The notes beneath the pieces are model-generated. The model worked only from the letters and a program-made list of their open reading frames with translations. It was not told the DNA's origin and searched no databases. DNA of 64,000 bases from an uncultured Verrucomicrobiota bacterium (GTDB lineage Bacteria; Verrucomicrobiota; Kiritimatiellia; JAAZAB01): positions 32,474 through 96,473 of the forward strand of contig CAZYXU010000001.1 of the NCBI GenBank assembly GCA_964650945.1, written 5' to 3'. Below, one piece after another: positions 6,874-51,171 of the stretch. Every line of letters begins with the position of its first letter. The stretch's first letter is position 1. The translations under genes were made by a program, and so were the position numbers.

Positions 6874-8039
6874 CTTTTGTATGCCCGCGTTTTGCGGAAG
6901 GCGGCACGGTGGGCGGCGCCGAGACCTTGTTGAAAAATCTGGCGGAGCGCGCCGCCGCCGCCGGCCGCCAGGTGGCGTTCCTCACCACCTGCGCCGCCGA
7001 TCATTTCACCTGGGCCAACACCCTGCCGCCGGGCGTCCGCCAATTTGCCCCCAACATGACCGTGCAGTTTTTCCCCGTCGCGGAAAAACGCGATCTGGCG
7101 GAGTTCCTGCGGGCGCAGGATTTGATCTGCCGCGGCGCAGCCTATACGCCGGCGGATGAGCAGGCGTGGCTGGCCAACAGCGTCACCAGTCCGGCGCTTT
7201 GCGCGCATCTGGCGGAGGCCGGCGCGGCCTACGACCGGATCGTCATCGGGCCGTATCTGTTCGGGCTGACGTATTTCGCCAGCCAGGTCCGGCCGCGCCA
7301 GACCATCTTGCTGCCTTGCCTGCATGACGAGAGCTTTGCCCGGGTCCGGGCGTTCCGCGCGATGTTTCGGGCGGTGGGCGGGCTGATCTTCAATTCCGTT
7401 CCGGAACGCGAACTGGCGCGCCGGCTTTACGACCTGCCGCCGGACCGCGCCTGGGTGGTGGGGATGGGGTTGGACGCCTTCAGCGCCGATGCCGCGGCTT
7501 TCAGCCGGCGGCACGGACTGGCGGCGCCTTACTTGATCTATTCCGGCCGGCGCGAGGCGGGCAAGGGCGTGCCGCTGCTCCTGGATTATCTGAATCTTTT
7601 CCGGCAGCGCACGGGCATGGATGTCAAGCTGGTGCTGACCGGATCGGGAACGGTGGATCCGCCTCCCGGCCTGGCGCGGCATATTCTGGATGTGGGATTT
7701 GTCAGCGAAGCGGAGAAGCGCGAGGCCATGGCCGGCGCGGCGGTGTTTTGCCAGCCGTCCACCAACGAGAGTTTCAGCATCGTGCTGCTGGAGGCCTGGC
7801 TGGCGGGAACGCCGGCGTTGGTGCATGCGCGGTGCGCGGTCACCACCGATCATTGCCGGCAGAGCGGCGGCGGCCTGTGGTTCATGACTTACGCGGAGTT
7901 TGAAACGGAGTTGCTGCTGCTGCTGCGCCGGCCGGACTTGCGCCGGCGCATGGGGGCGGCGGGACGCGCCTATGTCGCGCGCGAGTATTCCTGGCCGGGC
8001 ATTCTGGCCAGGTTCCTCGCGGCGCTGGACCAGGAGTGA
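6852..8039 (+). CDS. GT4 family glycosyltransferase
   Basis: 395 aa; N-terminal IAFVCPRF...GGAE and a C-terminal E...FSIVLLEAWLAGTPAL block typical of Glycos_transf_1 (GT-B). Confidence 0.85.
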   Translation: MSTARRIAFVCPRFAEGGTVGGAETLLKNLAERAAAAGRQVAFLTTCAADHFTWANTLPPGVRQFAPNMTVQFFPVAEKRDLAEFLRAQDLICRGAAYTPADEQAWLANSVTSPALCAHLAEAGAAYDRIVIGPYLFGLTYFASQVRPRQTILLPCLHDESFARVRAFRAMFRAVGGLIFNSVPERELARRLYDLPPDRAWVVGMGLDAFSADAAAFSRRHGLAAPYLIYSGRREAGKGVPLLLDYLNLFRQRTGMDVKLVLTGSGTVDPPPGLARHILDVGFVSEAEKREAMAGAAVFCQPSTNESFSIVLLEAWLAGTPALVHARCAVTTDHCRQSGGGLWFMTYAEFETELLLLLRRPDLRRRMGAAGRAYVAREYSWPGILARFLAALDQE

Positions 8040-9142
8040 ACGCCATGGCTGCGCCAGATATTAAAAGCCGGCCCGCGGTCCACCAGTTCGTGGCCGGTTT
8101 CACCGCCGGCGATGCCATCAGCAATGCCGCCTTGACCATGCGCGCGGTGTTGCGGCAGTGGGGCTATGCCAGCGAAATTTTCAGCGAGCCGGCGCGCACC
8201 ATGCCCGCCTGGCGGCGGGAAACGCCGGATGTGCGCCAGGCGGACAAGCTGGTGCGGCCGGACGATGTGGTGATCCTGCACCTGTCCATCGGCTCGCCCG
8301 TCAACGATCTCTTTGCGCAATTGCGCTGCCGCAAGGCGCTGCTTTATCATAACATGACCCCGGCGGAATATTTCCGCGGCTTTCACGAGCAACTGGCCCG
8401 GGATTTGGACTGGGGCCGCCGGCAGACGGCGGCGCTGGCCGGCCAGGCGGAAGTGGTGATGGCGGTCAGCCGGTTTAACGCCGCGGAGTTGCAGCGCCAG
8501 GGTTACTCCCGCGTGGCGCTGCTGCCGCTGTTGCTGGATTTCGACCGCATCCTGACCCCGCCGGACCGCGGACTGCTGCGGCGCCTGCGGGACGGCCGGC
8601 TGAACGTGGTGTTTGTCGGGCGCGCCGTGCCGAACAAGAAACTGGAGGATTTGCTGCAGGCCTTTTATGTCCTGCAGCGGGCCGTGGCGCCGGCTTCGCG
8701 CCTGATCCATGTGGGCTCCTTCGCGGGGTTGCCCCGCTACCAGGCGTTGCTGACCGCGCAAGTCAAGGCCTGGCGCCTTAAAAACGCGCTTTTCCTGGGC
8801 GCCGTTCCGCAACGCGAACTCAGCGCCGTCTATGCCGCCGCCGATGTCTTCCTGTGCGCCAGCGAACACGAGGGGTTTTGTATCCCGATCCTGGAAAGCA
8901 TGGCGCACGGGGTGCCGGCGCTGGCCTACGCGGCCGGCGCCGTGCCGGAAACCATGGCCGGCGCCGGGGTTTTATTTCACCAGAAACGCTGGGAATACGT
9001 GGCGGAAATCATCGGCCTGCTGGCCCGCGACCGGGTTTTGCGCGCGGCGGTTATCCGGCGCCAGCACGACCGGGTGGCGGAATACCGCCGGCGCGATTTG
9101 GCCGCGGAATTGCGCGCACACCTGGCGCCCCTGTTGGATTGA
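8036..9142 (+). CDS. GT4 family glycosyltransferase
   Basis: 368 aa; C-terminal SEHEGFCIPILESMAHGVPALA block of Glycos_transf_1. 4-nt overlap with the upstream GT4 gene. Confidence 0.85.
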   Translation: MNAMAAPDIKSRPAVHQFVAGFTAGDAISNAALTMRAVLRQWGYASEIFSEPARTMPAWRRETPDVRQADKLVRPDDVVILHLSIGSPVNDLFAQLRCRKALLYHNMTPAEYFRGFHEQLARDLDWGRRQTAALAGQAEVVMAVSRFNAAELQRQGYSRVALLPLLLDFDRILTPPDRGLLRRLRDGRLNVVFVGRAVPNKKLEDLLQAFYVLQRAVAPASRLIHVGSFAGLPRYQALLTAQVKAWRLKNALFLGAVPQRELSAVYAAADVFLCASEHEGFCIPILESMAHGVPALAYAAGAVPETMAGAGVLFHQKRWEYVAEIIGLLARDRVLRAAVIRRQHDRVAEYRRRDLAAELRAHLAPLLD

Positions 9143-9205
9143 CTTGATTCGTTGGCGCGAATACGCTATCAATGATCGGGTTTTGGGTGGTTACCCCGGC
9201 GCGGG

Positions 9206-11032
9206 ATGCAGAAGATAAAGGGGATGGCAATGGATGCGCAAAATTCGGTGAATGCCGCCGGCGCGGAATCGCCGCCGCAGATTGACGGATTCGAGATTAT
9301 CGAGCGCTTGGGCCAGGGCGGCTCCGCCAGCGTCTGGAAGGCCCGGCAGATTTCCCTGCAGCGTTTTGTGGTGATCAAGGTGCTGGGCGAGCACTTTGCC
9401 CGGGATGCGGCGGACATCAAGCAATTCCGGCTGGAAGCCCGGCTGGCCGCCAACCTGAAGCATCCGGGGATTGTGCAGGTGTATGACTTCGGCCAATCCC
9501 GCGACGACAGCCGCTATTATTTCGTCATGGAATACATCTCCGGCTATTCGGTCGGGGAATGGATGCGGCGAAAAAAAATATTGCCGGAAAACGACGCGCT
9601 GGTGGTGGCCCATGGCGTTGCGGCAGCCTTGCGCTACGCCTGGGACACGTCCCGGATCGTCCATTGCGACCTCAAGCCCGACAACATCATGGTGGATGGC
9701 GACGGCACCGTCAAACTCACCGATTTGGGGCTGGCGCAGGTGGTCAGCACCATTGGCCATGCCGCGGGCCGGCCGGACGAGTTTGTCACCGGCACGCCGA
9801 ATTACATGTCGCCCGAGCAGGTGCGCGGGGATGTCAAGCTGGATTGCCGCAGCGATATCTATGCGCTGGGCATGACCTTGTATCACATGCTGACCGGGAA
9901 GCTGCCGTTTGCCGCGGCGCCGGCCGAGGTCATGGAAAAACAATTGCACGAGCTGCTGCCGCATCCCCAGCAGGTGAACCCGGCCATCTCCGCCGCGGCG
10001 GCGCAATTGGTGACGCGGATGACGGCCAAGCTGCCGGCCGACCGCCACCAGTCCTGGGACGAGGTGCTGGCCGCCATCGCCGCTGTCGAAAAACGGGCGG
10101 ACGGGATGGCGCCGGCGCCGGACCCGAGTCCTGCGCCGCCGGCCGCACCGGCGGCCGAATTCGTCTGCTGTCCGCATTGTAACCGCGAAATCCGTGAAAG
10201 CGCTGCGTTTTGCCGGCACTGCGGCAGCCAATTGCAAGCGGCGCCGAAAACGCCCAAGCCCAGGTTGCGGGTCCGGCCAGCCGCCGAACATCCGCAACCG
10301 CCGCCGCCCGTTGCCTGGTCCCAAGCCCGGCAGGCCGCTTCCCGGCGGTTGGCGAAACCCGGCGCCGGCGCCCGGGGCGCCCCGGGCGCGCGCCGCCGCG
10401 CCGCCGGCTGGTTTTCCGGGATGATGGGCAATGTGCGCCTGGTGCTTTCCGTCGGTTTGCTGGGTTTTTTTGGCTATTGCGGCTATCAGAAAGTTGTCAA
10501 CGACAAAGAAATCATTCTGCCGCTGCGCATCAAGTTACAGCGCTCGATGGCCGTGGCGTTTCGCCAGGCCCAAATCCGGGTGGTGGAGTTTTTCCAGCGC
10601 CGGCCGCCGGCGGATAAGCCGGCCGGGGTGCCGCCGCCGGTGATCGAGGAAACGATTGCGCCGGCGCCGCCGCCGGTTGCGCCGCCGCCCGCGTATGCGC
10701 CCCCGACCGCCGCTTTGCCTCCGCCGCCGATCGCGCCGGCTGCCGCGGAACAGGATCAGAACCGGGAATACGAGCGGCTGCTGGAATTATGCCGGCAGAA
10801 TTTACCCAGGGTGGGCGAAACAGTATCGATCAATTTGCAGCATCATGCGGGCAAGCGCGAGGGGACTTTGCAGTCCATCGACCGCGATGGCCTGGTGATC
10901 AAGGTCGAATCCGGCCTGCTGACCGTGCCGTTTAACGTCATGGACCGCGAATACCGCCTGCGGTTTTTCCCCGAGGAGCGCGCCCGGCTGCTGATGCAGC
11001 GCGCCGCGCAAACCAAATCATCCGGCGAATGA
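9206..11032 (+). CDS. Ser/Thr protein kinase with zinc-ribbon, Pro-rich linker, single TM helix and C-terminal extracytoplasmic domain
   Basis: Kinase subdomains are visible: GQGGSASVWKA (Gly loop), VIKVL (Lys), HCDLKPDNIM (catalytic loop), DLG (DFG-like) and TPNYMSPE (APE). These are followed by CCPHCNREIRESAAFCRHCG, a proline-rich stretch, hydrophobic LVLSVGLLGFFGYCGY, and a 170-aa tail. Confidence 0.85.
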   Translation: MQKIKGMAMDAQNSVNAAGAESPPQIDGFEIIERLGQGGSASVWKARQISLQRFVVIKVLGEHFARDAADIKQFRLEARLAANLKHPGIVQVYDFGQSRDDSRYYFVMEYISGYSVGEWMRRKKILPENDALVVAHGVAAALRYAWDTSRIVHCDLKPDNIMVDGDGTVKLTDLGLAQVVSTIGHAAGRPDEFVTGTPNYMSPEQVRGDVKLDCRSDIYALGMTLYHMLTGKLPFAAAPAEVMEKQLHELLPHPQQVNPAISAAAAQLVTRMTAKLPADRHQSWDEVLAAIAAVEKRADGMAPAPDPSPAPPAAPAAEFVCCPHCNREIRESAAFCRHCGSQLQAAPKTPKPRLRVRPAAEHPQPPPPVAWSQARQAASRRLAKPGAGARGAPGARRRAAGWFSGMMGNVRLVLSVGLLGFFGYCGYQKVVNDKEIILPLRIKLQRSMAVAFRQAQIRVVEFFQRRPPADKPAGVPPPVIEETIAPAPPPVAPPPAYAPPTAALPPPPIAPAAAEQDQNREYERLLELCRQNLPRVGETVSINLQHHAGKREGTLQSIDRDGLVIKVESGLLTVPFNVMDREYRLRFFPEERARLLMQRAAQTKSSGE

Positions 11033-12279: not shown

Positions 12280-13287
12280 ATGCATACTGCAAAATACTGG
12301 GAAAGCACGGCGGACGGCCGGGCGCGCTGCCGGTTGTGTCCGCATGCATGCTTGATCGCCGAGGGCCATGCCGGCCGGTGCGGCGTGCGGGTGCTGCGCG
12401 GCGGCGTGTTGCGGGCCAGCGGTTACGGCATGCTGTCGGGCGCGCACACCGATCCGATGGAAAAAAAACCGCTCTATCATTTTTATCCCGGCGCCGCGGT
12501 CTTCAGCGTCGGCGGCTGGGGCTGCAATTTAAGCTGCCGGTTCTGCCAGAATTGGGGCATCTCCCAGCAAATCGGCCGCTCGGAGCGCGTGGTTCCGCCG
12601 GCGGAAGTGGTGGCCGCCGCGCTGGGCGCACAGCCGGCGCCGGCCCCGGCCATCGCCTACACCTACAACGAGCCGCTGATCAATTTTGAGTTCGTGCAGG
12701 ATTGCGCCCGCGCCGCGCGCGCCGCCGGCAAAAACATAAAAAACATCCTGGTCACGAATGGGCTCGTCAATCCCGCCCCGGCGGCGGAATTATTGCCGCT
12801 GATTGACGCCTTGAACATTGACATCAAGAGCATGGACCCGGAATTTTACCGGGAATACTGCGGCGGGCCGCTGGACCCGGTGCTGGACTTTGCCCGACAG
12901 GCGCGCGCCGCCGGCTGCCACCTGGAAATCACCAACCTGGTGATTCCCGGTTTGAATGACGCCGAGGCTTTGTTTCAAAAGTTGGCCGGCTGGATTCGGC
13001 AGCATCTGGGGGCGGCCACCCCCCTGCATCTCAGCGCCTACCATCCGGCTTTCAAGGTTGACCTGCCGGCGACGCCGCCGGAAACGCTCGAACGCGCCGC
13101 GGAATTGTGCCGACGGGAACTCCATTACGTCTATCTCGGCAACCTGGGCACGCCGGCTAGCCAGGACACCCTGTGCCCGCAATGCGGCGCCTTGCAGATT
13201 GAACGCCGCGGCTACCGGGTCCGGCGGCGCGGACTCAAGGGAACCGCTTGCGCCGGCTGCGGCCGGCCGGCGGATTTGGTTTTATAG
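12280..13287 (+). CDS. Radical SAM enzyme of the AmmeMemoRadiSam type (AmrS / PflA-like activase family)
   Basis: CNLSCRFCQNW (CxxxCxxC) radical SAM cluster motif and N-terminal CRLCPHAC. Overall the layout is like AmrS / pyruvate-formate-lyase activase homologues. Confidence 0.75.
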   Translation: MHTAKYWESTADGRARCRLCPHACLIAEGHAGRCGVRVLRGGVLRASGYGMLSGAHTDPMEKKPLYHFYPGAAVFSVGGWGCNLSCRFCQNWGISQQIGRSERVVPPAEVVAAALGAQPAPAPAIAYTYNEPLINFEFVQDCARAARAAGKNIKNILVTNGLVNPAPAAELLPLIDALNIDIKSMDPEFYREYCGGPLDPVLDFARQARAAGCHLEITNLVIPGLNDAEALFQKLAGWIRQHLGAATPLHLSAYHPAFKVDLPATPPETLERAAELCRRELHYVYLGNLGTPASQDTLCPQCGALQIERRGYRVRRRGLKGTACAGCGRPADLVL

Positions 13288-14904
13288 TCAGAACATGTTG
13301 CCGGGGTTGATCCGGCCGTGGGGGTCGAAGACGCGTTTGACCGCGCGCATGGCCTCAATGCCGTCCTCGCCGAACATCATCTGCAGCAGCGCTTTTTTCA
13401 GCTTGCCGACGCCATGTTCGGCGGAAACGGTGCCGCCGTGGCCCAGCGCCACGCGGGCCAGTCGCAGGTAAAGTTCCTTCCCGCGCCGGTATTCTTCCAG
13501 GTCGCGCGGCAGGATGTTGATGTGCAGGTGGTTGTTGCCGATATGGCCGAAAATCACGTATTCAAACCCGGCCGCCTGCAAAGCGGCATGGTAGGCCGCC
13601 AGGATCGCCGGCAGGGCGGCGTCCGGCACGGCGAAATCCGTGCCCAGTTTCGTCAAGCCGGGATATTGGACGGCGCGTTCGCCGATGCGCTGGTTGACGG
13701 CTTCCGGGAGCGCATGCCGGAAGTTTTTCAGCCGCAAGGTTTCGTCCTCATCCATGGCGGTCCAGGCGCTGTCCGGGTCGCTGCCGGCGGATTCCAGCAT
13801 GGCCAGCAGCGCTTCCGCCGTCTCTTCCATGGCGCAGCCGGTGGTGGCGATCTCGATGTAAACGGCGGTCTGCGCTTCGGGCGGCAGCGCCGGAATCGGA
13901 CTGCCGGCCCCCTGCCGGGTTTTCTGCGCACGCAGGAGGTTAAGGGCGCGCTCGTCGAAAAATTCCAGCGCCAGCAGGCGGCCGCCGGCGATGTCGGCTG
14001 CCCGGGCGGTCTGCACGAATTGGACGGCATGGGGTTCATCCGGGAAAAACGCGACGGCGCCCAGCAGGGCTTCCGGGGCGGGGATGAGCAGGATTTCGAT
14101 TTCGGTGTAAATGCCCAGCGTGCCTTCGGCGCCGATGAAGAGATCAATCAAATCCATGCCGGGCGCGCTGTAATAACCGGCGGCGTTTTTCACCGCCGGC
14201 ATGCGGTAACCGGGGATTAGAGCGCGGCGGGGCGGCCCGGCAGGGGGCAGCAACTGGAAGCCGCCATCCGGCGCGGCGCAATATTCGCCGCGCGGGATGG
14301 TTAACAAGGCGCCATCCGCCAGCGCCAGGCGCAGGCCTGTGACGTAGCGCCGCGTGGCGCCGTAAAACAGGGTGCGGGCGCCGGAGGCGTTGCAGGCGAC
14401 CATGCCGCCCAGGCTGGCGGTGTGCTCGGTGGGGTCGGGCGGGAAAAAGCAGGGCGGCGCCTGGCGGAGTTCCGCCAACGTCCGGCGGTCGGCCGCGGGC
14501 CAGGTTTCCATGCCGGGGAATTGCCCCGTATCCAGCGCCGCGTTGATGCCGGCCAGGGTGACGCCGGGCTGGCAGCGCAGGCGGAAATGTTCCGGGTTGG
14601 CCGGGTCGCGCCGCAGGCCGGTGAAAGCGCTTAAATGTTCCAGGCTTACCAGCCAGCCGCGCTGCGGCACGGCGCCGCCGGTGATGCCGGTGCGGCCGCC
14701 GGAGATGGTTACCGCGGCGCCTTCAGCCTGCGCCCGGCGGAGCAGCGCCAGGATTTCGGCTTCCGTGCGCGGCATGTAAATCTTATCCGCGCTGCCGGCC
14801 AGGCGCGATTCGTCCGTCAGGTAGGCGGCGCCATCGGCGGCCGCGACAGCCGGCGGCAGCGTCTCGGCGGACTCGGGATAAACGGTGGGCAGGCAGTTGT
14901 TCAT
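13288..14904 (-). CDS. FAD-linked oxidoreductase (GlcD / D-lactate dehydrogenase-like, FAD_binding_4 + FAD-oxidase_C)
   Basis: 538 aa with RGGGTGITGGAVP-type FAD-binding segment (ISGGRTGITGGAVP) and a C-terminal HGHIGNNHLH..EHGVG block typical of the family. Confidence 0.85.
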   Translation of the reverse strand: MNNCLPTVYPESAETLPPAVAAADGAAYLTDESRLAGSADKIYMPRTEAEILALLRRAQAEGAAVTISGGRTGITGGAVPQRGWLVSLEHLSAFTGLRRDPANPEHFRLRCQPGVTLAGINAALDTGQFPGMETWPAADRRTLAELRQAPPCFFPPDPTEHTASLGGMVACNASGARTLFYGATRRYVTGLRLALADGALLTIPRGEYCAAPDGGFQLLPPAGPPRRALIPGYRMPAVKNAAGYYSAPGMDLIDLFIGAEGTLGIYTEIEILLIPAPEALLGAVAFFPDEPHAVQFVQTARAADIAGGRLLALEFFDERALNLLRAQKTRQGAGSPIPALPPEAQTAVYIEIATTGCAMEETAEALLAMLESAGSDPDSAWTAMDEDETLRLKNFRHALPEAVNQRIGERAVQYPGLTKLGTDFAVPDAALPAILAAYHAALQAAGFEYVIFGHIGNNHLHINILPRDLEEYRRGKELYLRLARVALGHGGTVSAEHGVGKLKKALLQMMFGEDGIEAMRAVKRVFDPHGRINPGNMF

Positions 14905-14938
14905 ATGCTTGATTTTTTACCACGAAGGACGCGGGGTG

Positions 14939-16009
14939 TCACGCCGGTTTTTCCGCGGCCCGGCGGCTGAGCCGCAACTGCCCGCAGGCGGCATTGATCC
15001 CGGCGCCGCGCGAGGCGCGCAGAGTGGCATTGATGCCGGCTTGCTCCAGGATGCGGATAAACGCCTGGGCGGCGGCGGCGGGCGGCGGGCGCCCGGAGAA
15101 TTCCGCCACCGGGCTCAGGGGAATGAGGTTGAGCCGGCAGGGGCAACCGCGCAGCAGCTTCACCAGATCGCGCGCCTGCGCCGGGGCGGCGTTGACCTGG
15201 TCAACCAGCGTGTATTCGAAAGTGATGATCCGCCCGGTCTGCCCGGCGTATTCCCGGCAGGCTTCCAGCAGCGGCAGCAGCGCGTAATGGCGGTTGACCG
15301 GCATGAGTTGCGAGCGCAAAGCGTCAGCGGGCGCGTGCAGCGAAACGGATAGTTCCACCTGCAAGCCTTCGCGGGCGAGGCGCCGGATGCCGGGGATGAT
15401 GCCGCAGGTGCTGATGGTGATGCGGCGGGCGCCAATCCGCAGGCCGTCCGGATGGTTGAGAATACGGATGGCGGCCAGCACGTTGTCGTAATTATCCAGC
15501 GGCTCGCCAATGCCCATGAAAACCACGTTGGACGGCGGCGCGCCCAGCCGCCGGGTGAAAATCAATACCTGCTCCACCATCTCCGCGGCGGACAGGTTGC
15601 GCTGGAATCCCGCCTGGCCGCTGGCGCAGAAGGCGCAGTGGAATTTGCAGCCGGCCTGGCTGGAAACACACACGGTCTGGCGCACGCCGGCCGTCCGGCC
15701 GGCCGCCGGAATCAGCACGGTTTCAATGACTTCGCCGTCCGCCAGCGTGGCGCTGATTTTTTGGGTTTGAGGGGCTTCGCCGGCGGCCGGCGCCCCGGCC
15801 GGCTGGTCGGGTCTGACTGCAGCGAGCTGGAAGCGCTCGGCCAGTTGCGCCCGCAATGCGCGCGGCAGGTTGCGCATGACTTCCCAATCGTCGGCATAGC
15901 GGACGTAAAGCCAGTGCCAGATTTGAGCGGCGCGCCAGGCCGGCTCGCCCAGCGCCAGGCAGGCCGCCTCAAGCTGCGCGGGCATCAGGTTGTGGATCGG
16001 CTCCTTCAT
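14939..16009 (-). CDS. rlmN: 23S rRNA (adenine2503-C2)-methyltransferase, radical SAM
   Basis: SQAGCKFHCAFCASG radical-SAM motif, MGIGEPLDNYDNV and C-terminal CGQL are RlmN/Cfr family signatures. Start placed at MKEPIHNL. Confidence 0.85.
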   Translation of the reverse strand: MKEPIHNLMPAQLEAACLALGEPAWRAAQIWHWLYVRYADDWEVMRNLPRALRAQLAERFQLAAVRPDQPAGAPAAGEAPQTQKISATLADGEVIETVLIPAAGRTAGVRQTVCVSSQAGCKFHCAFCASGQAGFQRNLSAAEMVEQVLIFTRRLGAPPSNVVFMGIGEPLDNYDNVLAAIRILNHPDGLRIGARRITISTCGIIPGIRRLAREGLQVELSVSLHAPADALRSQLMPVNRHYALLPLLEACREYAGQTGRIITFEYTLVDQVNAAPAQARDLVKLLRGCPCRLNLIPLSPVAEFSGRPPPAAAAQAFIRILEQAGINATLRASRGAGINAACGQLRLSRRAAEKPA

Positions 16010-16104
16010 GGCAAGGCGGCAGTCATTTCCCGGATGATGCCTGCCGCGTGTGAATACCGCGTCAGGCGGACGCGGTGGTTTGCGGCAGATGATTAAAGAT
16101 TGCG

Positions 16105-17259
16105 TCAAACATGGCGAAAACCCAACGCGGAAAGTTTTTGCCGCAAGCTCGGGGATAATCCCCGGCCGGCAATGCGCGTGTAGCGGAATTCGCGGCGCAC
16201 GGGATATTTCTGGCGCAGCTCCTCAAACGCGCGGCCGCGCGCCTGGTCTTCCAGGGCGGCGATCCGGCGCAGGTTGGCGTCGTCGCGCTCAATGTCGTAA
16301 AGCTGCCGCACCGCTTCCTCCAGCAACCGCTCGTCCGGCATGCCGGCGGCCGGGGCCGCCAGCGCGATTTCCGGCACCGCGGGCGGCGGCAGCAGCGGCT
16401 CGTGATCCCAGTCCGGCTGAACACCCAGGAAGCGGCAGAGTTCGCGGTACACCATGACCGTGCCCATGACCTTGCCCTCGTAGGAGTAACCGGCGATATG
16501 CGGCGTGCCGCAGGCGGCGCGGCGCAGGACGTCCGGGCGGAAGGCCGGCTCGCCTTCCCATGTGTCCAGGATGGCATGCGCCACCCGGCCGCCGGCCAGC
16601 GCCGCCAGCAGCGCGTCCGAATCCTGCGCGCCGCCGCGGGCGGCGTTGATGAAAATCGCGCCCGGCTTGAGCTTGGCGAAAAAGGCGGCATCGGCCAGGT
16701 GGCGGGTGGGATAGGGGCCGTCTTTGGTCAGCGGCACGTGCAGGGTGACAATATCCGCCTGCGGCAGGATTTCATCCAGCGGGCGGAAAACCGGATTTTT
16801 TTCCGCATCTAGCCGCGGCGGATCGTTTTGCAGGATGCGCAAACCCAGGGCGCCCAGCTTGCTGACCACCAGCCGGCCGACATTGCCCACGCCGATCACC
16901 GCCATGGTCATGCCCGCCAGGGTGAAGTTTTGCCGGGCGGCCAGCCGCAGCAGCGCCGCCGCCACGTATTCCGCCACGCTGTTGGCATTGCAGCCGGCGG
17001 CGGAACACCAGCGAATCCCGGCCTGCTCCAGCCAGGGAATCTCCATGTGGTCGGTGCCGATGGTGGCCGTGCCCACGAACCGCACGCGGCTGCCTGCCAG
17101 CAGTTCGCGGTTGACGCGCAGCGTGGAGCGCACGGCCAGGATTTCCGCGTCGCGTACGCGCGCGGGGGTAATTTCGCGGGGCGGCAGGATCTCCACCGCC
17201 CCCAAACGGCCAAAGGCCTCTTGCGCGAACGGCATGCTGGTGGCGCAGATTATTTTCAT
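16105..17259 (-). CDS. pdxB: Erythronate-4-phosphate dehydrogenase
   Basis: MKIICATSMPFAQEAF...VGTATIGTDHMEIPWL...IGVGNVGRLV (NAD-binding GxGxxG)...HIAGYSYEGK plus a C-terminal dimerisation tail, collinear with PdxB. Start at MKII. Confidence 0.8.
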   Translation of the reverse strand: MKIICATSMPFAQEAFGRLGAVEILPPREITPARVRDAEILAVRSTLRVNRELLAGSRVRFVGTATIGTDHMEIPWLEQAGIRWCSAAGCNANSVAEYVAAALLRLAARQNFTLAGMTMAVIGVGNVGRLVVSKLGALGLRILQNDPPRLDAEKNPVFRPLDEILPQADIVTLHVPLTKDGPYPTRHLADAAFFAKLKPGAIFINAARGGAQDSDALLAALAGGRVAHAILDTWEGEPAFRPDVLRRAACGTPHIAGYSYEGKVMGTVMVYRELCRFLGVQPDWDHEPLLPPPAVPEIALAAPAAGMPDERLLEEAVRQLYDIERDDANLRRIAALEDQARGRAFEELRQKYPVRREFRYTRIAGRGLSPSLRQKLSALGFRHV

Positions 17260-17335
17260 GGCATGAACGGCTGCGGGTTTCCCGGGACAAAACAGGCGCA
17301 TTGTTTGCCAAAATACGCCGGCTGTCAATCCCGAA

Positions 17336-19336
17336 TTGCAGCGGTTTTGTTTGACACGCCCCGGCAGATGTGCCAGCATGTCCGCTGAAAAACAACTGCA
17401 AGGATTCAATCAAATGCATAGGATTACGAAGAGAATATGGTTTGATCATGCCCGGCAATATGTTGCGGCGCTGGCAGCGGTTGGGTGCGTCTGCGGCGGC
17501 GTGCGCGCGGCAACGCCAACGCCGGCGGAAAAAGTCAGCAACGCCGTGCATGCCGTGCGCCTGAACCTGGAGGCGGAACTGGGCGTTACCGTGCCGTCGT
17601 TGAGCGTATTGCTGGAGACTTCCAATGAAACTTTTTTTGCCTCCTCGGCGGCTGCCCCGGGCCAGGCTCTGACCCCCGACACCACTTTCCGGTTTGCCAG
17701 CAATACCAAGAGTTTCACCGCCGCGGCCATCCTGCGCCTGCATCGCCAGGGTCTGCTGGACTTCCATGCTAAAATCACGGACAGCATTCCGGGCAGCGCC
17801 ATCCCTTACGTCCCCGCCGATACCAACTGGAACATCCCGTACAAGGACGAGATCACCATCGCGCAACTGCTCCGGCACAGCGCCGGCGTCTATGACGTGG
17901 ATAACAATCCCGTCCCGGGCTGCGGCGGCGAGTCCTACGTCACATACCGCCTGGACCTGGAGCCGGAACATCAGTTTACCGCCGCCGAGCTGGTCGGGCA
18001 GGTTGCCCTGCATCGCCTGGAGTTTTTCGCGCCGAACCGGAATTATCACTACAGCGATACCGGTTACACGATGCTCGGCGAAATCGTCGCCCGGGTTTAT
18101 TCGCGGTTTTGCGGCGCGCCCAAAACCTATTCTGATTATCTGCACGAGCAAGTCGTGGGCGTGCATGCCCCCGTGCCTTTGGCCGCCATCCGGTTTCCAT
18201 GCCTGGCCGCGGACACGGCCTTGCCGGCGCCGTTTGTGCCGGGGGTCCAATATCTGCCTGGCGGGGAAACGCTGATCACTTCCAACGCCAACATCAGCGC
18301 GAATGTCGCCGAGGGCAATGGCTACGGGACCCTGGCAGCGCTCAATCGCTATATTCGGACCATGATGCGGGGCGAAAACATCCTCGATGCGCAGATGGTG
18401 CGTCTCATGCAAACCAACACCGCGCCCCATAACGCCAATTACGGCTGCGGTTGCTCGTTTATGCTGGACATCGGCTATGGCCATACCGGCGCCACGCTGG
18501 GATATCTTTCACTGATGGCCTACAATCCCGAAACGGATGTGTCGGTGGCGGTTTGCCTGCCGTTTTGGGATGAGGCCGGACAGGACTCCTTCAAGCAATG
18601 TTTCAACGCTTTGAGCGCGGCGGCGATTAGCGCAACCGAGGCGCTGGGATACCCGAAAACTCCGGTGCTTTTGCCGGGCGCCACGACCAACGTCAACCTG
18701 GCGCCCGCCGCCGTGCAACGGTTCGGCCTGGCCGCCCGCGCCGGCGTCGATTACCGCGTCACCGCCGGGGGCGCCGCGGCCAATGTGTCGTTGGGCCTGG
18801 CGCCGGCAGCCAATCCCGGTGCGCCCCATTGGAGCGTCAACCAACTGGATTGGGTATGCCCGGCGACCGGCACTTATTTTCTGTCCGTCGTTTCCGCCGC
18901 CGCCACCCCCTGCGCCTTGCGCCTGGACACGCTGACGCCGGTCGGGCCGCTGGTTACGGTCAACGGCTTGGCCGGGGATGGAGTTTGCCTGGGCGCCGGC
19001 GACCCCTTGACGCTGGCCGTGAGCATGCTGCATGTCGAGCCATATGCCGGCATCCCGGTGGATTGGTGGGTGGCGGCGTATGCGCATGATGCCGGGCTCT
19101 GGTATTATTTAAACGATCGGATGGCCTGGACGCCGTTTGATGGCAACCCAGCCAACTGCCGCCCGGCATTCCAGGGGCCGTTGCAGAATTTGGCGCCGCT
19201 CGCTCTCGTGCAGGATCTGGTGCCGGCGCCCGGGACTTACAGCTTCTGGTTCGCGGTGGATTATCCCATGGATGGCGTTCTGCGCCTGGACGGGCAGGTC
19301 ATGCTTTCCCGGGTTACGGCCACGGTGGGGCGATAG
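17336..19336 (+). CDS. Secreted beta-lactamase-family serine hydrolase with a ~170-aa C-terminal domain of unknown function
   Basis: FASNTKSF (S-x-x-K), HYSDTGY and GHTGAT motifs of class C beta-lactamase / esterase-like hydrolases. The C-terminal domain carries VDWWV...FAVDYPMDGVL, which is shared with the protein at 37494..39296. The true start may be the internal Met MHRITK (17414). Confidence 0.75.
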   Translation: MQRFCLTRPGRCASMSAEKQLQGFNQMHRITKRIWFDHARQYVAALAAVGCVCGGVRAATPTPAEKVSNAVHAVRLNLEAELGVTVPSLSVLLETSNETFFASSAAAPGQALTPDTTFRFASNTKSFTAAAILRLHRQGLLDFHAKITDSIPGSAIPYVPADTNWNIPYKDEITIAQLLRHSAGVYDVDNNPVPGCGGESYVTYRLDLEPEHQFTAAELVGQVALHRLEFFAPNRNYHYSDTGYTMLGEIVARVYSRFCGAPKTYSDYLHEQVVGVHAPVPLAAIRFPCLAADTALPAPFVPGVQYLPGGETLITSNANISANVAEGNGYGTLAALNRYIRTMMRGENILDAQMVRLMQTNTAPHNANYGCGCSFMLDIGYGHTGATLGYLSLMAYNPETDVSVAVCLPFWDEAGQDSFKQCFNALSAAAISATEALGYPKTPVLLPGATTNVNLAPAAVQRFGLAARAGVDYRVTAGGAAANVSLGLAPAANPGAPHWSVNQLDWVCPATGTYFLSVVSAAATPCALRLDTLTPVGPLVTVNGLAGDGVCLGAGDPLTLAVSMLHVEPYAGIPVDWWVAAYAHDAGLWYYLNDRMAWTPFDGNPANCRPAFQGPLQNLAPLALVQDLVPAPGTYSFWFAVDYPMDGVLRLDGQVMLSRVTATVGR

Positions 19337-25096: not shown

Positions 25097-25759
25097 TTAC
25101 GCCACCAGTCCCGCCTCCTGAAAACTGTAATACCCTTTCCGGGTAACAATGATCTGATCCAGGACGCGGATGCCTAGAATCTTTGCCGCCTGGGTCAGTT
25201 GCTCGTGTATCTTCAGGTCGGCGTCGCTGGGTTTGAGTTCGCCGGATGGGTGGTTGTGGGCGAAGATGACGGCGGCGGCCCGGTCGGCGATTACGTCGGC
25301 AAAGACCTCTCGCGGGTGAACCTGGCTCCGGTCCAGTAGGCCGATGGTGACGGTGCGCTTCTCGATGACTTCGTTTGCGCCGTTCAGGGAAATGCAGAGG
25401 AAGTGCTCCTGTTGCTTCCCGGCAATGTCGGCCAGTAGTGGAAGGGCATCGGCGGACGTCGCAATCTTGACCGTGTCCCTTAACAGGTGCCGCCGGGCGA
25501 GTTCAAAAGCGGCAAGGACTTGGTATGCCTTGGCGGGGCCCATGCCGTGAATGGCGGTCAGGTCCGCCTCGGTAAGCCCCGTTTTCTTCACTTGAATGAT
25601 CTTGGCGATCTCCTTCGACATAGCCCGTACATCGTGGCCCTGAACGCCGCGGCCAAGGATGACCTGAACGAGTTCCTCATCCGTCAAGGCAGACGCGCCC
25701 CTGGCCGCCATCTTTTCACGGGGTCGATCCTGTTCAGGCATGTCCTTGATGGTCTTCAC
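25097..25759 (-). CDS. radC: RadC-family JAB/MPN domain protein (UPF0758)
   Basis: C-terminal HNHPSGELKPSDADLKIHEQL (JAMM motif) and N-terminal HhH region; 4-nt overlap with hsdM upstream. Confidence 0.85.
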   Translation of the reverse strand: MKTIKDMPEQDRPREKMAARGASALTDEELVQVILGRGVQGHDVRAMSKEIAKIIQVKKTGLTEADLTAIHGMGPAKAYQVLAAFELARRHLLRDTVKIATSADALPLLADIAGKQQEHFLCISLNGANEVIEKRTVTIGLLDRSQVHPREVFADVIADRAAAVIFAHNHPSGELKPSDADLKIHEQLTQAAKILGIRVLDQIIVTRKGYYSFQEAGLVA

Positions 25760-27339
25760 GCTTTCAGTTCCTGTAATCCGGCGGCGATCTCGCGTTGCGC
25801 TTCTTCGATGATGGCCGTCAGTTCCGCTGGGGTCCGCTTGTCGGAGAGGTCCGGGGCGTTGTCATTATTGGCTTTGATGTCGAAGTCCCTGGACTTGATG
25901 GTCTCGGCGTCCACGTACCAACTGCGCTCGCTGATGCGGCGTGGGTCGTCGGCCGGCAGGCGGATGCGTTCCAGAAAGTCCCCGAAATTGGCGTAGGTCA
26001 GGGGATTGGATTTGTTCACCTTGCGAGGCGTGAAGTCGTCCTTCAGGGTCATGTCGTAGTACCAGACCCGCTGTGTGGCCCGGCCCTTGGTGAAGAAGAG
26101 AAGGTCGGTCTTCACGCCCGCACCGGCATTCACGAAAACGCCTTGGGGCAGACTGACGATGCACCAGAGGTCGCACTCGTCCATGAGTTTACGCTTCGTC
26201 TGCCGGTAAGCCGCGGTTTTCGTGTGGAAGAGGACGCCCTCGTCAATCACCATACCGCACGTCCCGCCCTCGGCCAGCGCGTCGATGATGTGCTGGAGAA
26301 ATAGAATCTGCGCCTTGCCGCACTTGAAGGCGAACTGCGCCTGGGCGTCCTTGCCTTCCTTGCTGCCGAACGGGGGATTGGTCAGAACGTAGTCGAACTG
26401 GGACGGCGCGCCGGTGAACAGGTCGGCATAGGTGGGTGTCCCGGTCAACGTGTTGCCGTGCCAGATGCGCGGCAGGTCAATCTCGTGCAGAGCCATGTTG
26501 GCCAACGTGATCGGGATCGCTTCCGGCGCGTCCTCCCGGCCCCAGAATGTTTCGGTCTTCAACTCCTTCATCTGCGTCGGCGTCGGGCGCTGTTGCAGCA
26601 GGTGCTTGTACGCCTCGATGAGAAAGCCGCCGGTCCCGCAACAGGGATCGTACACGGTCTTGTCGAGACGGGGATTGACGACGTTGACGATAAGCCGGAT
26701 CACCTCGCGCGGGGTAAAGAATTGTCCGCCGTCGTTCTTCTTCTCGCCGAGGCTGGGGAGCAGCCCCTCGAATGCCTGCGAGATCGGAAACATGTGCTGG
26801 GCGTCAATCGTCCCGGCGGTCAGTGCGTGGACGCGGTCCAGAACGTCGAGAAGATTTGTCTGGCTGGCGACAACCGTTCGCTCCTTGTTGGCGAAAATCT
26901 CCCCGATGATCTTCTGTTTCGCACTGGTGCCCGCCTTCTCCTTCAGGCCGATCAGGAACGGGAACAACTCCCCGTTCACAAAGGACAGAAAACCGTTGAG
27001 TTCGGCCTTCGTCTCGGTTAGCTCGTAGCGCTTCCACCCGGTAAAGGCTTTACCTTTGCCGCCGGCGTGCTTGTCGAATGGGGCGGCCCAGTCACGCCAG
27101 CGGTATGGCGGCGGGATGGATTCATGGTAAGGTTTTTTGACCGCCAGGGCCTTGGCAGCCTCCTTCTCCTCCATCATGTCGAGGAACCGGAGAAAGAACA
27201 TCCATGTCAGTTCCGGCACGTATAGCCGCGCCCCCTTGGCCTTGTCGCGGCGCAGGATGTTGCAGATGCCCTTGACCGCCTTGTCCATGCCGGCCTGGGT
27301 CGAGATGGTTTTACCGTTGTTCTGAAGACGATTTTTCAT
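25756..27339 (-). CDS. hsdM: Type I restriction-modification system, DNA methyltransferase subunit
   Basis: HsdM_N region, DPCCGTGGFL (motif I) and NPPFG (motif IV) of N6-adenine MTases; 527 aa. Confidence 0.9.
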   Translation of the reverse strand: MKNRLQNNGKTISTQAGMDKAVKGICNILRRDKAKGARLYVPELTWMFFLRFLDMMEEKEAAKALAVKKPYHESIPPPYRWRDWAAPFDKHAGGKGKAFTGWKRYELTETKAELNGFLSFVNGELFPFLIGLKEKAGTSAKQKIIGEIFANKERTVVASQTNLLDVLDRVHALTAGTIDAQHMFPISQAFEGLLPSLGEKKNDGGQFFTPREVIRLIVNVVNPRLDKTVYDPCCGTGGFLIEAYKHLLQQRPTPTQMKELKTETFWGREDAPEAIPITLANMALHEIDLPRIWHGNTLTGTPTYADLFTGAPSQFDYVLTNPPFGSKEGKDAQAQFAFKCGKAQILFLQHIIDALAEGGTCGMVIDEGVLFHTKTAAYRQTKRKLMDECDLWCIVSLPQGVFVNAGAGVKTDLLFFTKGRATQRVWYYDMTLKDDFTPRKVNKSNPLTYANFGDFLERIRLPADDPRRISERSWYVDAETIKSRDFDIKANNDNAPDLSDKRTPAELTAIIEEAQREIAAGLQELKA

Positions 27340-27359
27340 TTCAGAGTTTCCGCCAGCAC

Positions 27360-27527
27360 TCAGGCTTCCGTGGCGCCGTATTCCGCCGGTTTCTCAGCCA
27401 CAACCAAACGCTTTCGGCTGGCACAGCGCTTCTCGAACTGCTCGCGCGCCTCCCGCAGTTCCTTCGTCATCAATTCCGGGTGTCCATAGTATCGCTTGGA
27501 CAATTCCGTTCGGATGTCGCGCATCAT
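27360..27527 (-). CDS. Small basic hypothetical protein (55 aa from MMRDIR; the ORF extends to 27584 and overlaps the PIN gene's 3' end)
   Basis: Open frame 27360..27584, placed between the PIN gene and hsdM. No family recognised; start choice uncertain (27527 or 27554). Confidence 0.35.
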   Translation of the reverse strand: MMRDIRTELSKRYYGHPELMTKELREAREQFEKRCASRKRLVVAEKPAEYGATEA

Positions 27528-27537
27528 CCTGACGCAG

Positions 27538-28005
27538 TCAAATGTCTTTTTCATTGAGCACCTCCCTGGGTGTGCGAATATCAATCAAACCGTAACCTTC
27601 CTTCAAGTTTACGGAATTGTATAGTCGGATGCGGTTTAGATTCACGATGTGCTTGAAGTTCCAACTTACCAGAACATCCACTCGTGCCACCGTCGCGGCG
27701 GCGATGTGCAGTCCATCCGCCACGGTTGCCGGCGTCACAATGCCATCGCGGAGATAGGCATCGGCCAAGGCCAGCGATTCATTTGTCTCGGGCAATATCT
27801 CTCGGCGCTCCACGGGCATATCCTCCACAATCTCCCGCACTCGTCCCGGCGCTTGCCGTAGTTCCCGGATCGTCAGTTCCGACAGCACCATCTTCTTGCG
27901 CCCATGCCGAAACTCCCCCATCAGGCGTACCGACCATTCCTTGAACTCATCCTCAAAGCAACCTCCGATCACTGACGTGTCAACGTAGATTCGCATCTTG
28001 TCCAT
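27538..28005 (-). CDS. PIN-domain protein (VapC-like putative toxin/ribonuclease)
   Basis: MDKMRIYVDTSVIGG (first conserved Asp), E at about 40, VADGLHIAAA (third acidic), SWNFKHI and a C-terminal acidic residue: the PIN fold signature. Starts 15 nt after the HTH gene stop. Confidence 0.75.
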   Translation of the reverse strand: MDKMRIYVDTSVIGGCFEDEFKEWSVRLMGEFRHGRKKMVLSELTIRELRQAPGRVREIVEDMPVERREILPETNESLALADAYLRDGIVTPATVADGLHIAAATVARVDVLVSWNFKHIVNLNRIRLYNSVNLKEGYGLIDIRTPREVLNEKDI

Positions 28006-28020
28006 CCATATTGCTGAAGG

Positions 28021-28425
28021 TCACACGGCCAACGCCTTTGCGCGCCGGTCTAGATCGGGCGAGTGGAGTTTCCGCACTTCCTCGATGAATTCGTCCAGTT
28101 CCTTCTCGGTCAATTCCGCGCCGCGGACCGTCCGGAAGAAGACCGGCAGTTTCGCGAGCAACTTCTCGTCGCTCATGATCTCCCGTGGAATCTGGCCTCG
28201 GGCGATATCCGCCTGATCCATGAAGTCCTGCCACTCGGATGACTCCGGCTTCAGGCCGAGCGCCTTGGCCCATTTCGCCAAGGTCTTCGTGTCCTTGGGC
28301 GGCGGATTGACGTTCCGCTCGATCTTGCTCCAGTTGCTCGGATCAACCTCGTTCTCGGCACAGAATTGCCGTAGCGTCCTCCCCTGCGCGATCCGCTTGT
28401 CTTTAACGAGTTCGCCGAATGTCAT
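28021..28425 (-). CDS. XRE-family helix-turn-helix protein (putative antitoxin/regulator), 134 aa
   Basis: AGGAGG RBS 8 nt upstream of the ATG; ELVKDKRIAQGRTLRQFCAENEVDPSNWSKIERN is a classic HTH_3 motif, with a 70-aa C-terminal domain. Confidence 0.75.
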   Translation of the reverse strand: MTFGELVKDKRIAQGRTLRQFCAENEVDPSNWSKIERNVNPPPKDTKTLAKWAKALGLKPESSEWQDFMDQADIARGQIPREIMSDEKLLAKLPVFFRTVRGAELTEKELDEFIEEVRKLHSPDLDRRAKALAV

Positions 28426-28497
28426 GGTAAGGTCCTCCTGTTGCTTCATCCGTGGTGTAGAATAAACCACATGTGGTAGGAATGCAACCACAAAATA

Positions 28498-29718
28498 CTA
28501 CCCGAAATCGAACGCCTCGCGCAGGATCGCTCCGGGCAGGGCGGAAACAGCATCTCGTTCGTTGGCCGAAGCCGCTCTGATCCTGCTTATGGCCTTCCGT
28601 TGCCTTTCGACGTCTTTCACAATGTTTTCCTGGTCGTCAATAGTGGGCGGTATGGGTACCGGGTAGTCACGCATGAAATCCGCAGGCACCCGCTGTTGCC
28701 CCGCGCTGCCATCGAATTTCGCCTCTGCAGCATCGCGGAATTCGCGAGTTCGCACCAGAAACAAGAGCCATTCTCGCCGAATCCCGGGCTTGGCCCTCAA
28801 GACGTGGAATTCGGTTGTGCCAAAACCGAAGCCTTTGGTCAAACCCGTTGCGATCGCCGACTTTCCGTTCTGCATACATGGCGTTATTTTCGCAAACAAC
28901 ACGTCGCCCTCTTCGAAATAGGTGTAGCCCTTCGCGACTGACGAGAGAGGTTTCGTAATTCTCGTTGCGATCTGCCCCAGAGTCTCGTCTATGGCGTCCA
29001 TTGGCACAAAACTGACCATGGCATCTGCCTTTTCTGCGCCAAGCGCCTTGCGACGCGGATTGATGTCGGCCATCTTACCCAATGGTACTCTCATCCATCC
29101 ACTAGGCAAACGATCTCCTCGTCCCGTGTGCAGGGCGTTGCGAAGAAACGCGCATTCGAGCGTTGCCGCTGCGTCTATCTGTCTCTCCGACGCCCGCCGC
29201 ATGGACTCGACCTTGCTTAACTTCCGCTCCAGTTCGGCAGCGAGACTGTCTCTCGCTGCTTCCTCACGTGGGACAGGAACGCAAAGGCGTTTCAGTTTCC
29301 GAATGTCGGCTCTGGGCATCCGGCCGCCCGTTGAATACTTCACCGCGCAGTCTATGACCTGCTTCGACTGGAGAGCGGCTGCAAGAAAGGCGCGGGACAC
29401 CCCGGCGGCTGGTCTCAATGTGAGGATTTCCATACAGCATTTTCCAGGTATATCCGGCAGGAATACCTTGTCGAGATAGGGGCGCAGTTTTCCGTATAGG
29501 ACGTGAGTATGGTCGAAACGGAAGCATGTGCTCTCCGCCTTGGCGGGAGACTCCGAAATGAACCGGCGCGTATGCGATTCGATATTTTCCAGACCTACAA
29601 ACGGCAATCCGGCGAAGTCGGGGTCACCCGCTTGGACTTGGTTTCGCTCTTCCTCGAAGAGATTTCCCAGTTCCATCCATTGCCAGTCTGGGGGTAGTTG
29701 TCTGGCTGTTGAGGTCAT
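28498..29718 (-). CDS. hsdS: Type I restriction-modification system, specificity subunit (two TRDs)
   Basis: 406 aa with two target-recognition domains separated by a conserved central helix (LAAELERKLSKVE...) and C-terminal helix repeats. ATGA overlap with the hsdR stop. Confidence 0.85.
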   Translation of the reverse strand: MTSTARQLPPDWQWMELGNLFEEERNQVQAGDPDFAGLPFVGLENIESHTRRFISESPAKAESTCFRFDHTHVLYGKLRPYLDKVFLPDIPGKCCMEILTLRPAAGVSRAFLAAALQSKQVIDCAVKYSTGGRMPRADIRKLKRLCVPVPREEAARDSLAAELERKLSKVESMRRASERQIDAAATLECAFLRNALHTGRGDRLPSGWMRVPLGKMADINPRRKALGAEKADAMVSFVPMDAIDETLGQIATRITKPLSSVAKGYTYFEEGDVLFAKITPCMQNGKSAIATGLTKGFGFGTTEFHVLRAKPGIRREWLLFLVRTREFRDAAEAKFDGSAGQQRVPADFMRDYPVPIPPTIDDQENIVKDVERQRKAISRIRAASANERDAVSALPGAILREAFDFG

Positions 29719-42637: not shown

Positions 42638-42711
42638 TGCCGGATGGTGTAACGGTAGCACAGCAGACTCTGGATCTGTTTGTCTAGGTTCAAATCCTAG
42701 TCCGGCAGCCA
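42638..42711 (+). tRNA. tRNA-Gln (anticodon CTG), CCA encoded
   Basis: Cloverleaf: acceptor TGCCGGA/TCCGGCA with U1-A72 and discriminator G73 (bacterial tRNA-Gln identity elements), anticodon stem GCAGA/TCTGT, loop CTCTGGA, T-loop GGTTCAAATCC. Confidence 0.8.
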
Positions 42712-47621: not shown

Positions 47622-47787
47622 AAAATTGATTTTTCCGTCAATTGATTTTGTCAGGCAATACAATAGAATCAGACGATAAAAAAACAAGCGCTAAATTTTT
47701 AATATGATTGTTTTGTTCGAAAACGTGAAAGATCCTGCCGGCGGTTTTGCCGGTTGAACCGTAAATACCAGTGGAAGGAGTCGTCCG

Positions 47788-48933: not shown

Positions 48934-49119
48934 CCGCTGCCGCCGGTCCGCGCTTGCCGCCCCCCTCCCTGCCGGTAGCGGCCGGGCGCCCCGCCCGGGG
49001 GCGCTTACCCCCGCGCCGTCTGCCGAAAAAAAGAAAAATACAATTGACTTTTTCCCGCTTCTGGTGGATAAAGCGCGGTTTCGGTTGACTTGGCAATGCG
49101 GGGAGCAACGTTGGTGCGC

Positions 49120-50034: not shown

Positions 50035-50073
50035 GGGAAGGATGACCGCGGCGCTGTCGGCGGGCCAGGCGAT

Positions 50074-50144
50074 TGCCCGATGGTGTAATGGCAGCACACG
50101 GCCCTTTGGAGGCCAGAGTCCAGGTTCGAGTCCTGGTCGGGCAA
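50074..50144 (+). tRNA. tRNA-Gln (anticodon TTG), CCA not encoded
   Basis: Acceptor TGCCCGA/TCGGGCA (U1-A72), anticodon loop CTTTGGA, T-arm CCAGG-TTCGAGT-CCTGG. The first anticodon-stem pair is a C/A mismatch, which lowers confidence. Confidence 0.7.
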
Positions 50145-50159
50145 CGGTGATAATTGACG

Positions 50160-50195
50160 CGCGCGGGCGCGGCGGCAGCAAGCCGCGCCCGCGCG
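50160..50195 (+). other. Perfect 14-bp GC hairpin (CGCGCGGGCGCGGC-GGCAGCAA-GCCGCGCCCGCGCG), 16 nt after the tRNA-Gln(TTG) 3' end. Possible tRNA transcript processing or termination structure.
   Basis: Read directly; not followed by a canonical T-run (TTGATG only). Confidence 0.35.
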
Positions 50196-50223
50196 GTTGA
50201 TGAAAAACGTTAGGAGTAGAACA

Positions 50224-51153: not shown

Positions 51154-51171
51154 CGAGGAAAGGATACGCAT

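Follow-up and report, generated by a model that had tools for sequence, protein, structure and literature searches.

The window analysed here is a stretch of 64,000 nucleotides from an uncultured Verrucomicrobiota bacterium of the class Kiritimatiellia (assembly GCA_964650945.1, contig CAZYXU010000001.1, positions 32,474 to 96,473). It carries two genes, called A and B below, that code for exported proteins: a beta-lactamase-family serine hydrolase (A) and a GH64 beta-1,3-glucanase (B). Their catalytic parts are unrelated, and both proteins end in the same domain, which we call the tail. The positions of the genes and of their domains are given in table 1.

Table 1. Features of the window discussed in the text. 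Positions are those of the window.
Feature	Position	Strand	Evidence or remark
Gene A: exported beta-lactamase-family serine hydrolase with the tail at its end	17414..19336	+	open reading frame (ORF), Pfam, orthologue starts
Probable Sec signal peptide of A, MHRITKRIWFDHARQYVAALAAVGCVCGGVRA	17414..17509	+	approximate cleavage site
Beta-lactamase/transpeptidase-like catalytic domain of A, residues 86-406	17591..18553	+	Pfam PF00144, E=1e-33, 117 bits
Unnamed beta-rich middle domain of A, residues ~440-536	18653..18943	+	abuts the tail directly; absent from B
Tail of A (GPLVTVNG...VDWWV...FAVDYPMDG...VTATVGR-stop)	18944..19333	+	BLASTP, hidden Markov model (HMM) domain E=1.9e-56, AlphaFold2 model
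Gene B: exported GH64 beta-1,3-glucanase with the tail at its end, 600 amino acids	37494..39296	+	ORF, Pfam, signal-peptide-like N-terminus
GH64 catalytic region of B, residues 47-455	37632..38858	+	Pfam PF16483 Glyco_hydro_64, E=5e-22, 79 bits
Tail of B (GPCIRANG...VDWWV...FAVDYPMDG...VTVVVQ-stop)	38904..39293	+	BLASTP, HMM domain E=1.9e-57, AlphaFold2 model
HsdM (N6_Mtase)	25756-27339	-	
HsdS (Methylase_S)	28498-29718	-	
HsdR (ResIII/EcoEI_R_C)	29715-32111	-	

When the full proteins A and B are compared by BLASTP, the sole significant segment is A 536-664 against B 470-598, with 53 identical residues out of 131 (40%) and E=3e-21; all other segments have E>0.7. A first-pass annotation of this DNA had described a common C-terminus on two exported proteins with unrelated N-terminal parts, and both statements hold: the similarity is confined to the last ~130 residues, and the preceding parts belong to different Pfam families (Beta-lactamase in A, Glyco_hydro_64 in B). 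The boundaries required correction. The domain had been given as 110-170 amino acids long, starting at 18818 in A and at about 38931 in B. Its length is about 126-130 amino acids and its start in A lies at 18944, the surplus of ~42 residues belonging to the separate beta-rich domain before the tail; the start in B is at 38904. Searches of the window with both tails (tblastn, six frames) find these two copies only, the next match having E ~0.5. At the DNA level the similarity of the two tails is limited to short patches (44 bp at 86% and 84 bp at 75%), which argues for an old divergence and against recent duplication or gene conversion.

The listed ORF of gene A covers 17336..19336 (+), 666 amino acids, with a TTG start at 17336. 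This start is probably too far upstream and the true start is probably the ATG at 17414 (MHRITKR...), because the starts of the orthologues agree with it (P0013/L003 and L004, MHWI...). The ATG at 17378 is a second candidate. With the TTG start, the additional part of the ORF (17336..17414, +) overlaps the gene of a pdxB-like dehydrogenase on the other strand (16105..17409, -), in a convergent/divergent arrangement. A crude hydrophobicity heuristic finds a basic n-region followed by a hydrophobic stretch at the N-terminus of A, and ORF A also gives weak NCBIfam matches to PBP4B and AmpH. The middle domain has no Pfam or NCBIfam match and no second copy in the window (tblastn with the middle domain as query), and it is kept in the orthologues L003 and L004. 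Judged by eye only, its sequence (…GTYFLSVVSAAATPCALRLDTL) has the look of a pre-peptidase-C-terminal-type sandwich.

The first-pass annotation had supposed a portable module that defines a family of exoproteins, and the searches bear this out. With a profile built from eight sequences, HMMER was run exhaustively against 1.84 billion cluster representatives and gave 1589 matches at E<=1e-3, 542 at E<=1e-10 and 103 at E<=1e-30, so the family is not limited to two paralogues. Compared with this search, word-indexed protein searches (5 and 60 matches) badly underestimate the family; the one run with the two tails found five proteins, one of them carrying two tandem copies. In GTDB genomes, one for each species, a scan gave 81 confirmed matches at 79 loci in 19 metagenome-assembled genomes (MAGs), all labelled Kiritimatiellia, Verrucomicrobiota or Lentisphaerae. 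An HMM scan of the fetched loci identifies 87 tail-bearing ORFs, from 1 to at least 12 per MAG; these counts per MAG are lower bounds, the genome scan having used two exact motifs. There are runs of three to four adjacent tail genes at loci L015, L045 and L060. In the databases the tail proteins are called 'hypothetical protein' or take their name from the passenger domain, i.e. the part that precedes the tail.

Pfam annotation of the tandem tail-gene clusters of L060 and L045 gave further surface-type proteins only. In L060, from a groundwater MAG, a 2066-amino-acid teneurin/RHS-type YD-shell protein (TEN_YD-shell, RHS_repeat, NHL; 12320..18520, +) is encoded immediately downstream of a run of four tail genes. 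In L001 (GCA_040770345.1; 3332..6033, +) the tail gene is split into short called genes of 248, 101 and 122 amino acids, probably a frameshifted assembly and not a real small protein.

The passengers are highly diverse: in 88 host proteins they represent 82 Pfam families. Most frequent are fn3 (18), Ig_J_second (17), leucine-rich repeats (LRR) of the BspA type, LRR_5 (10), and Calx-beta (9); there are also lectin-like, FG-GAP, Kelch and beta-helix domains, peptidases M28 and C1, beta-lactamase and GH85_C. They are mainly surface or secreted types, with few carbohydrate-active enzymes. The position of the tail is far less variable: it ends at most 3 amino acids from the C-terminus in 142 of 152 proteins (93%) and at most 10 in 146 of 152. 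The genomic ORFs show the same terminal position, and most end in ...V.V[Q/E] with the stop codon directly after.

By a crude heuristic, signal-peptide-like N-termini are present in 79 of the 110 representatives that start with Met and in 57 of the 69 complete genomic ORFs. An export signal is therefore found in most members and not in all, many of the proteins that fail the heuristic being visibly truncated. These signals resemble type I signal peptides, not lipoprotein signals, so that retention at the surface would need other means.

An fn3-like domain is frequently joined to the tail without a linker (...YWVKAVNAAGASAFS..DTGY.GVV followed directly by GPLVSVNG), giving an often seen stalk-plus-anchor layout of fn3 spacer and tail, and suggesting that this unit may be shuffled as a block. 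The fn3-like part ends in ...YWVKAVNAAGASAFSxxDTGYxGVV and its tail subfamily runs from GPLVSVNGMV to ...VE (L005-L020, L022, L024, L035, L080 etc.).

The consensus of 193 non-redundant copies reads GPxIxANG...YxGxxVDWWVxAxA..WYYL...W..F.G....C.P.YQG.L.NL in its first half and continues with ...VL....L..G.Y.FWFAVDYPMDG.L.......D.V.V.V[Q/E]. About 40 of the 126 positions are at least 80% conserved, the most conserved residues being N7, D38-W39-W40 and F100-A-V-D103-Y-P-M-D107-G108. Because the tail is conserved although its passengers are unrelated, the alignment suggests that one common partner may lie behind this conservation. The conserved Cys was considered as a reactive residue and rejected: it is present in 74% of the copies and replaced by Trp or Leu in most others, as at a buried, non-reactive position.

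AlphaFold2 confidently predicts an all-beta domain of ten strands for tail A, with a mean predicted local distance difference test (pLDDT) of 92.1 and a predicted template-modelling score (pTM) of 0.85. For tail B, modelled from an independent alignment, the values are 95.0 and 0.87, with the same ten strands in the same order. The models place the tail in the immunoglobulin (Ig)-like or fibronectin type III (FnIII)-like class (V-set/FnIII-like), as a two-sheet Greek-key beta-sandwich structurally similar to Ig, FnIII or PKD domains. Since a Foldseek search with the tail model gave nothing at E<=1e-3, the predicted fold is a generic Ig-like sandwich without a specific solved relative. Mean-field direct coupling analysis for strand pairing gave gap artefacts only.

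The most conserved motifs are YxGxxVD, where strand 4 begins, and FAVDYPMDG, which covers the end of strand 9 and the loop after it. By analogy with V-set domains, one end of the sandwich should bring the two together. At the position of FAVDYPMDG, protein P0146 has Asp/Asn-rich loops in its divergent repeats (LDGDKDG, ADDDINNAID, VDDPNGYVD). From these two observations we infer that the most conserved residues form a putative Ca2+- or ligand-binding site.

The first-pass annotation did not recognize the tail as a named domain. In a 2025 copy of Pfam and the June 2026 release of NCBIfam, no profile matches the tail in the full proteins A and B, and no family recurs in 45 diverse tails at E<=5 or in the divergent and tandem members; the lone stray Pfam match is GBD_T9SS_assoc, E=0.02, in one of the 45 tails. 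Sequence and profile searches of the PDB gave nothing credible (best E=0.009, an unrelated protein), and in the literature nothing relevant was found on a sorting domain of Kiritimatiellota or on the sequence motifs of the tail. The tail is thus not a well-known domain and, being absent from Pfam, NCBIfam and the literature searched, the family appears undescribed. The domain family is new; its architectural principle is familiar.

We give about an even chance to the reading that the tail is a lineage-specific C-terminal module for the surface targeting or retention of exported proteins. An unnamed Ig-like domain would then mark the extreme C-terminus of unrelated Sec-exported proteins in one lineage of uncultured Kiritimatiellia, namely hydrolases, peptidases and adhesin-like LRR, fn3, Calx-beta, FG-GAP and beta-helix proteins. 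The N-terminal signal peptide would take each of them across the inner membrane, and the folded tail would serve as a common handle for one partner dealing with all cargoes. This partner might be a component of the envelope, either a protein of the outer membrane or a glycan at the surface, or else a route of export across the outer membrane, and the cargoes would be displayed or retained on the cell surface instead of being lost by diffusion. The reading is based on the terminal position of the tail, the signal peptides, the many paralogous carriers per genome and the diverse, mostly surface-type passengers; the fn3 spacers, the conservation of the tail across unrelated carriers and its restriction to one lineage are also consistent with it.

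Several observations weigh against surface targeting or retention. Tandem copies, two to four each, occur in seven of the 152 proteins (about 5%). P0009 (304 amino acids) consists of a signal peptide and two copies, and P0146 (502 amino acids) of a signal peptide and four divergent copies. In the tandem proteins the canonical copy is internal, and the terminal one is divergent and lacks the FDGNLxxC segment. In rare cases (P0010, P0094, P0121, P0138, L030) the tail is an internal or N-terminal domain. There is no named isolate among the genomic matches and no cultured host among the hits.

Among orthologues, the tail evolves at least as fast as the catalytic part. The passenger of A is 89% and 88% identical in L003 and L004, and the tail 91% and 87%; for the orthologues of B, which keep the GH64-plus-tail arrangement (L073, L067 and L033), the values are 90%, 93% and 69% for the passenger and 78%, 83% and 48% for the tail. 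Finally, when all ORFs of at least 150 amino acids in 81 loci and the window were clustered, no machinery or partner gene family was found to recur beside the tail genes. The neighbour clusters that do recur are antisense shadow ORFs of the tail and widespread families, for example histidine kinases and ABC transporters. Dedicated machinery, if it exists, is encoded elsewhere than beside the tail genes.

The tandem and copy-only proteins, the internal canonical copies and the fast evolution among orthologues point to a binding or anchoring module more than to a pure translocation signal. For this reason we prefer non-covalent retention on a component of the envelope to an export signal of the T9SS kind, T9SS being the type IX secretion system discussed below.

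Examples of tandem or copy-only proteins are P0146, P0009, L053, L054, L062 and L002. In P0094 an M23 peptidase domain follows the tail, and in L030 (5065..7953, +) the ORF continues beyond it into a chitobiase/beta-hexosaminidase-C-like segment.

Of the alternatives, the one that survives best, although we consider it rather unlikely, is a lectin-like module or carbohydrate-binding module (CBM) that binds an environmental polysaccharide or another external surface and tethers its carrier to the substrate, not to the cell's own envelope. Typically, CBMs and Ig-like binding modules are beta-sandwiches as well, and the invariant Asp and aromatic residues (D38, W39, W40, W/Y99, D103, D107) resemble Ca2+/sugar-binding sites. 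CBMs and dockerins are likewise non-catalytic modules found C-terminally on enzymes, which they may concentrate at a surface, and on the GH64 enzyme the tail sits where a CBM usually does; tandem copies and copy-only proteins would fit avidity. However, carbohydrate-active enzymes are a minority among the passengers, which include LRR, fn3, Calx-beta, peptidases and beta-lactamase, and no Pfam CBM or lectin family matches the sequence, even at E<=5. Binding modules are normally N-terminal, internal or C-terminal, and the position of the tail is far stricter.

It is unlikely, in our view, that the tail serves as the tag by which an undescribed pathway of Kiritimatiellota recognizes proteins for outer-membrane export or attachment, as an independent functional analogue of the T9SS C-terminal domain (CTD) in the Planctomycetes–Verrucomicrobia–Chlamydiae (PVC) group. 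Such a pathway would have a translocon and a receptor of its own, perhaps also a processing enzyme, with their genes located elsewhere in the genomes.

Quite improbable is a homotypic or heterotypic assembly module that would link secreted proteins into a matrix or a multi-enzyme surface complex, in the manner of cohesin/dockerin or of RbmA. The latter, a biofilm matrix scaffold of Vibrio cholerae with tandem FnIII-like domains (PDB 4be5), is among the closest known systems. Proteins made of a signal peptide and two to four copies could act as scaffolds, and the predominance at the C-terminus of diverse enzymes is dockerin-like; no distinct cohesin-like partner family was found.

The first-pass annotation had compared the tail with T9SS CTDs. 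The analogy is sound for the architecture and fails for the sequence, the number of strands and the taxon. Like type A CTDs, the tail folds as an Ig-like beta-sandwich and forms the very end of Sec-exported proteins, is lineage-restricted and often preceded by an Ig or fn3 domain, and occurs within a genome on many cargoes of unrelated function, such as peptidases, glycosidases and adhesins with LRR and fn3; the C-terminal position and the signal peptides reported above are those expected of such a domain. We know of no T9SS machinery in Kiritimatiellia-type lineages.

Membership of the tail among the CTDs of type A or B, as a divergent form that feeds a T9SS, is nevertheless very improbable. 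It has ten strands in ~126 amino acids, against seven strands in ~70-100 amino acids, no detectable sequence similarity, and occasional tandem or internal copies. The type A profiles (PF18962/TIGR04183) match neither the full proteins at E<=1 nor the 45 diverse tails at E<=5. Those of type B (PF13585/TIGR04131) likewise have no match in the full proteins or the 45 tails, and no PorP/SprF-like gene recurs as a neighbour. The seven-stranded type A CTD is reported to be restricted to Bacteroidota, together with the T9SS genes (PMC10202324), whereas all 79 genomic loci and all named database matches of the tail are in Kiritimatiellia, Verrucomicrobiota or Lentisphaerae MAGs, within the PVC group. 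A local curiosity, by chance or by paralogy of two genes, might be read from the presence of only two copies in the 64-kb window, and is refuted, with a negligible probability left to it, by the pairwise E=3e-21 and by the hundreds of homologues that unrelated proteins carry in metagenomes and in the 19 MAGs.

The parallel with PEP-CTERM, also drawn by the first-pass annotation, fails on structural grounds. PEP-CTERM and LPXTG signals are, like the tail, C-terminal tags common to many exported proteins of one lineage, but they consist of a motif of ~25-35 residues, a transmembrane helix and a basic cluster (exosortase, sortase). With its 126 residues, the tail forms a soluble folded domain whose last element is a beta-strand (..V.V[Q/E]). 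A signal of either type is excluded, since the tail lacks both the PEP and the LPXTG motif, does not end in a hydrophobic helix or an Arg cluster and has no NCBIfam PEP-CTERM match. Two further known systems are excluded as well. The beta-domain of autotransporters (type V secretion system) is a C-terminal outer-membrane barrel of 12 strands and at least 250 amino acids; the model of the tail is a two-sheet sandwich of 126 amino acids and there is no Pfam autotransporter match. Dockerins are small and alpha-helical, with duplicated 22-residue EF-hand-like Ca-binding segments; the model of the tail is all-beta and Pfam Dockerin does not match.

Kiritimatiellota are widespread anaerobic polysaccharide degraders. 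We know of no account of how their enzymes and adhesins come to sit on the cell surface and, to our knowledge, they are without the T9SS and Sus-lipoprotein solutions of Bacteroidota. An easily recognized domain found on as many as a dozen or more exported proteins of a genome offers a catalogue of the surface or secreted proteome of an uncultured lineage, and a handle for finding the matching machinery or receptor through HMM searches and phylogenetic profiling. At the least, it merits a new domain-family entry that would end the 'hypothetical' annotation of the tail proteins; at best, if the proposed function is true, it would be a pointer to a new sorting or anchoring system.

The genes that flank A and B in the window are housekeeping genes: the pdxB-like dehydrogenase, a cyclophilin, a YifB/ComM-like ATPase, an M20 peptidase and a DUF480 protein. 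The distance from gene A to the YifB/ComM-like gene is ~15.3 kb in the window and ~6.1 kb in the related MAG locus L004, and this difference suggests that the interval holds an insertion in the window. A complete type I restriction–modification system is encoded between A and B (25756..32111, -; table 1).

Long antisense shadow ORFs lie over the tail genes in many loci, for example 16772..18484 (-) and 38505..39245 (-) in the window and 7603..9669 (-) in L003; the DNA with these ORFs has 62% GC. The antisense translation of the conserved tail is so well conserved in its turn that it forms a BLAST cluster with 55 members from 37 loci, an artefact against which gene calling should guard. Two tRNA-Gln genes (+) are present in the window, at 42638..42711 and 50074..50145, with the anticodons CTG and TTG. 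The second sits within a minus-strand ORF of 1177 amino acids (47638..51171), so this ORF is unlikely to be a real gene in its entire length.

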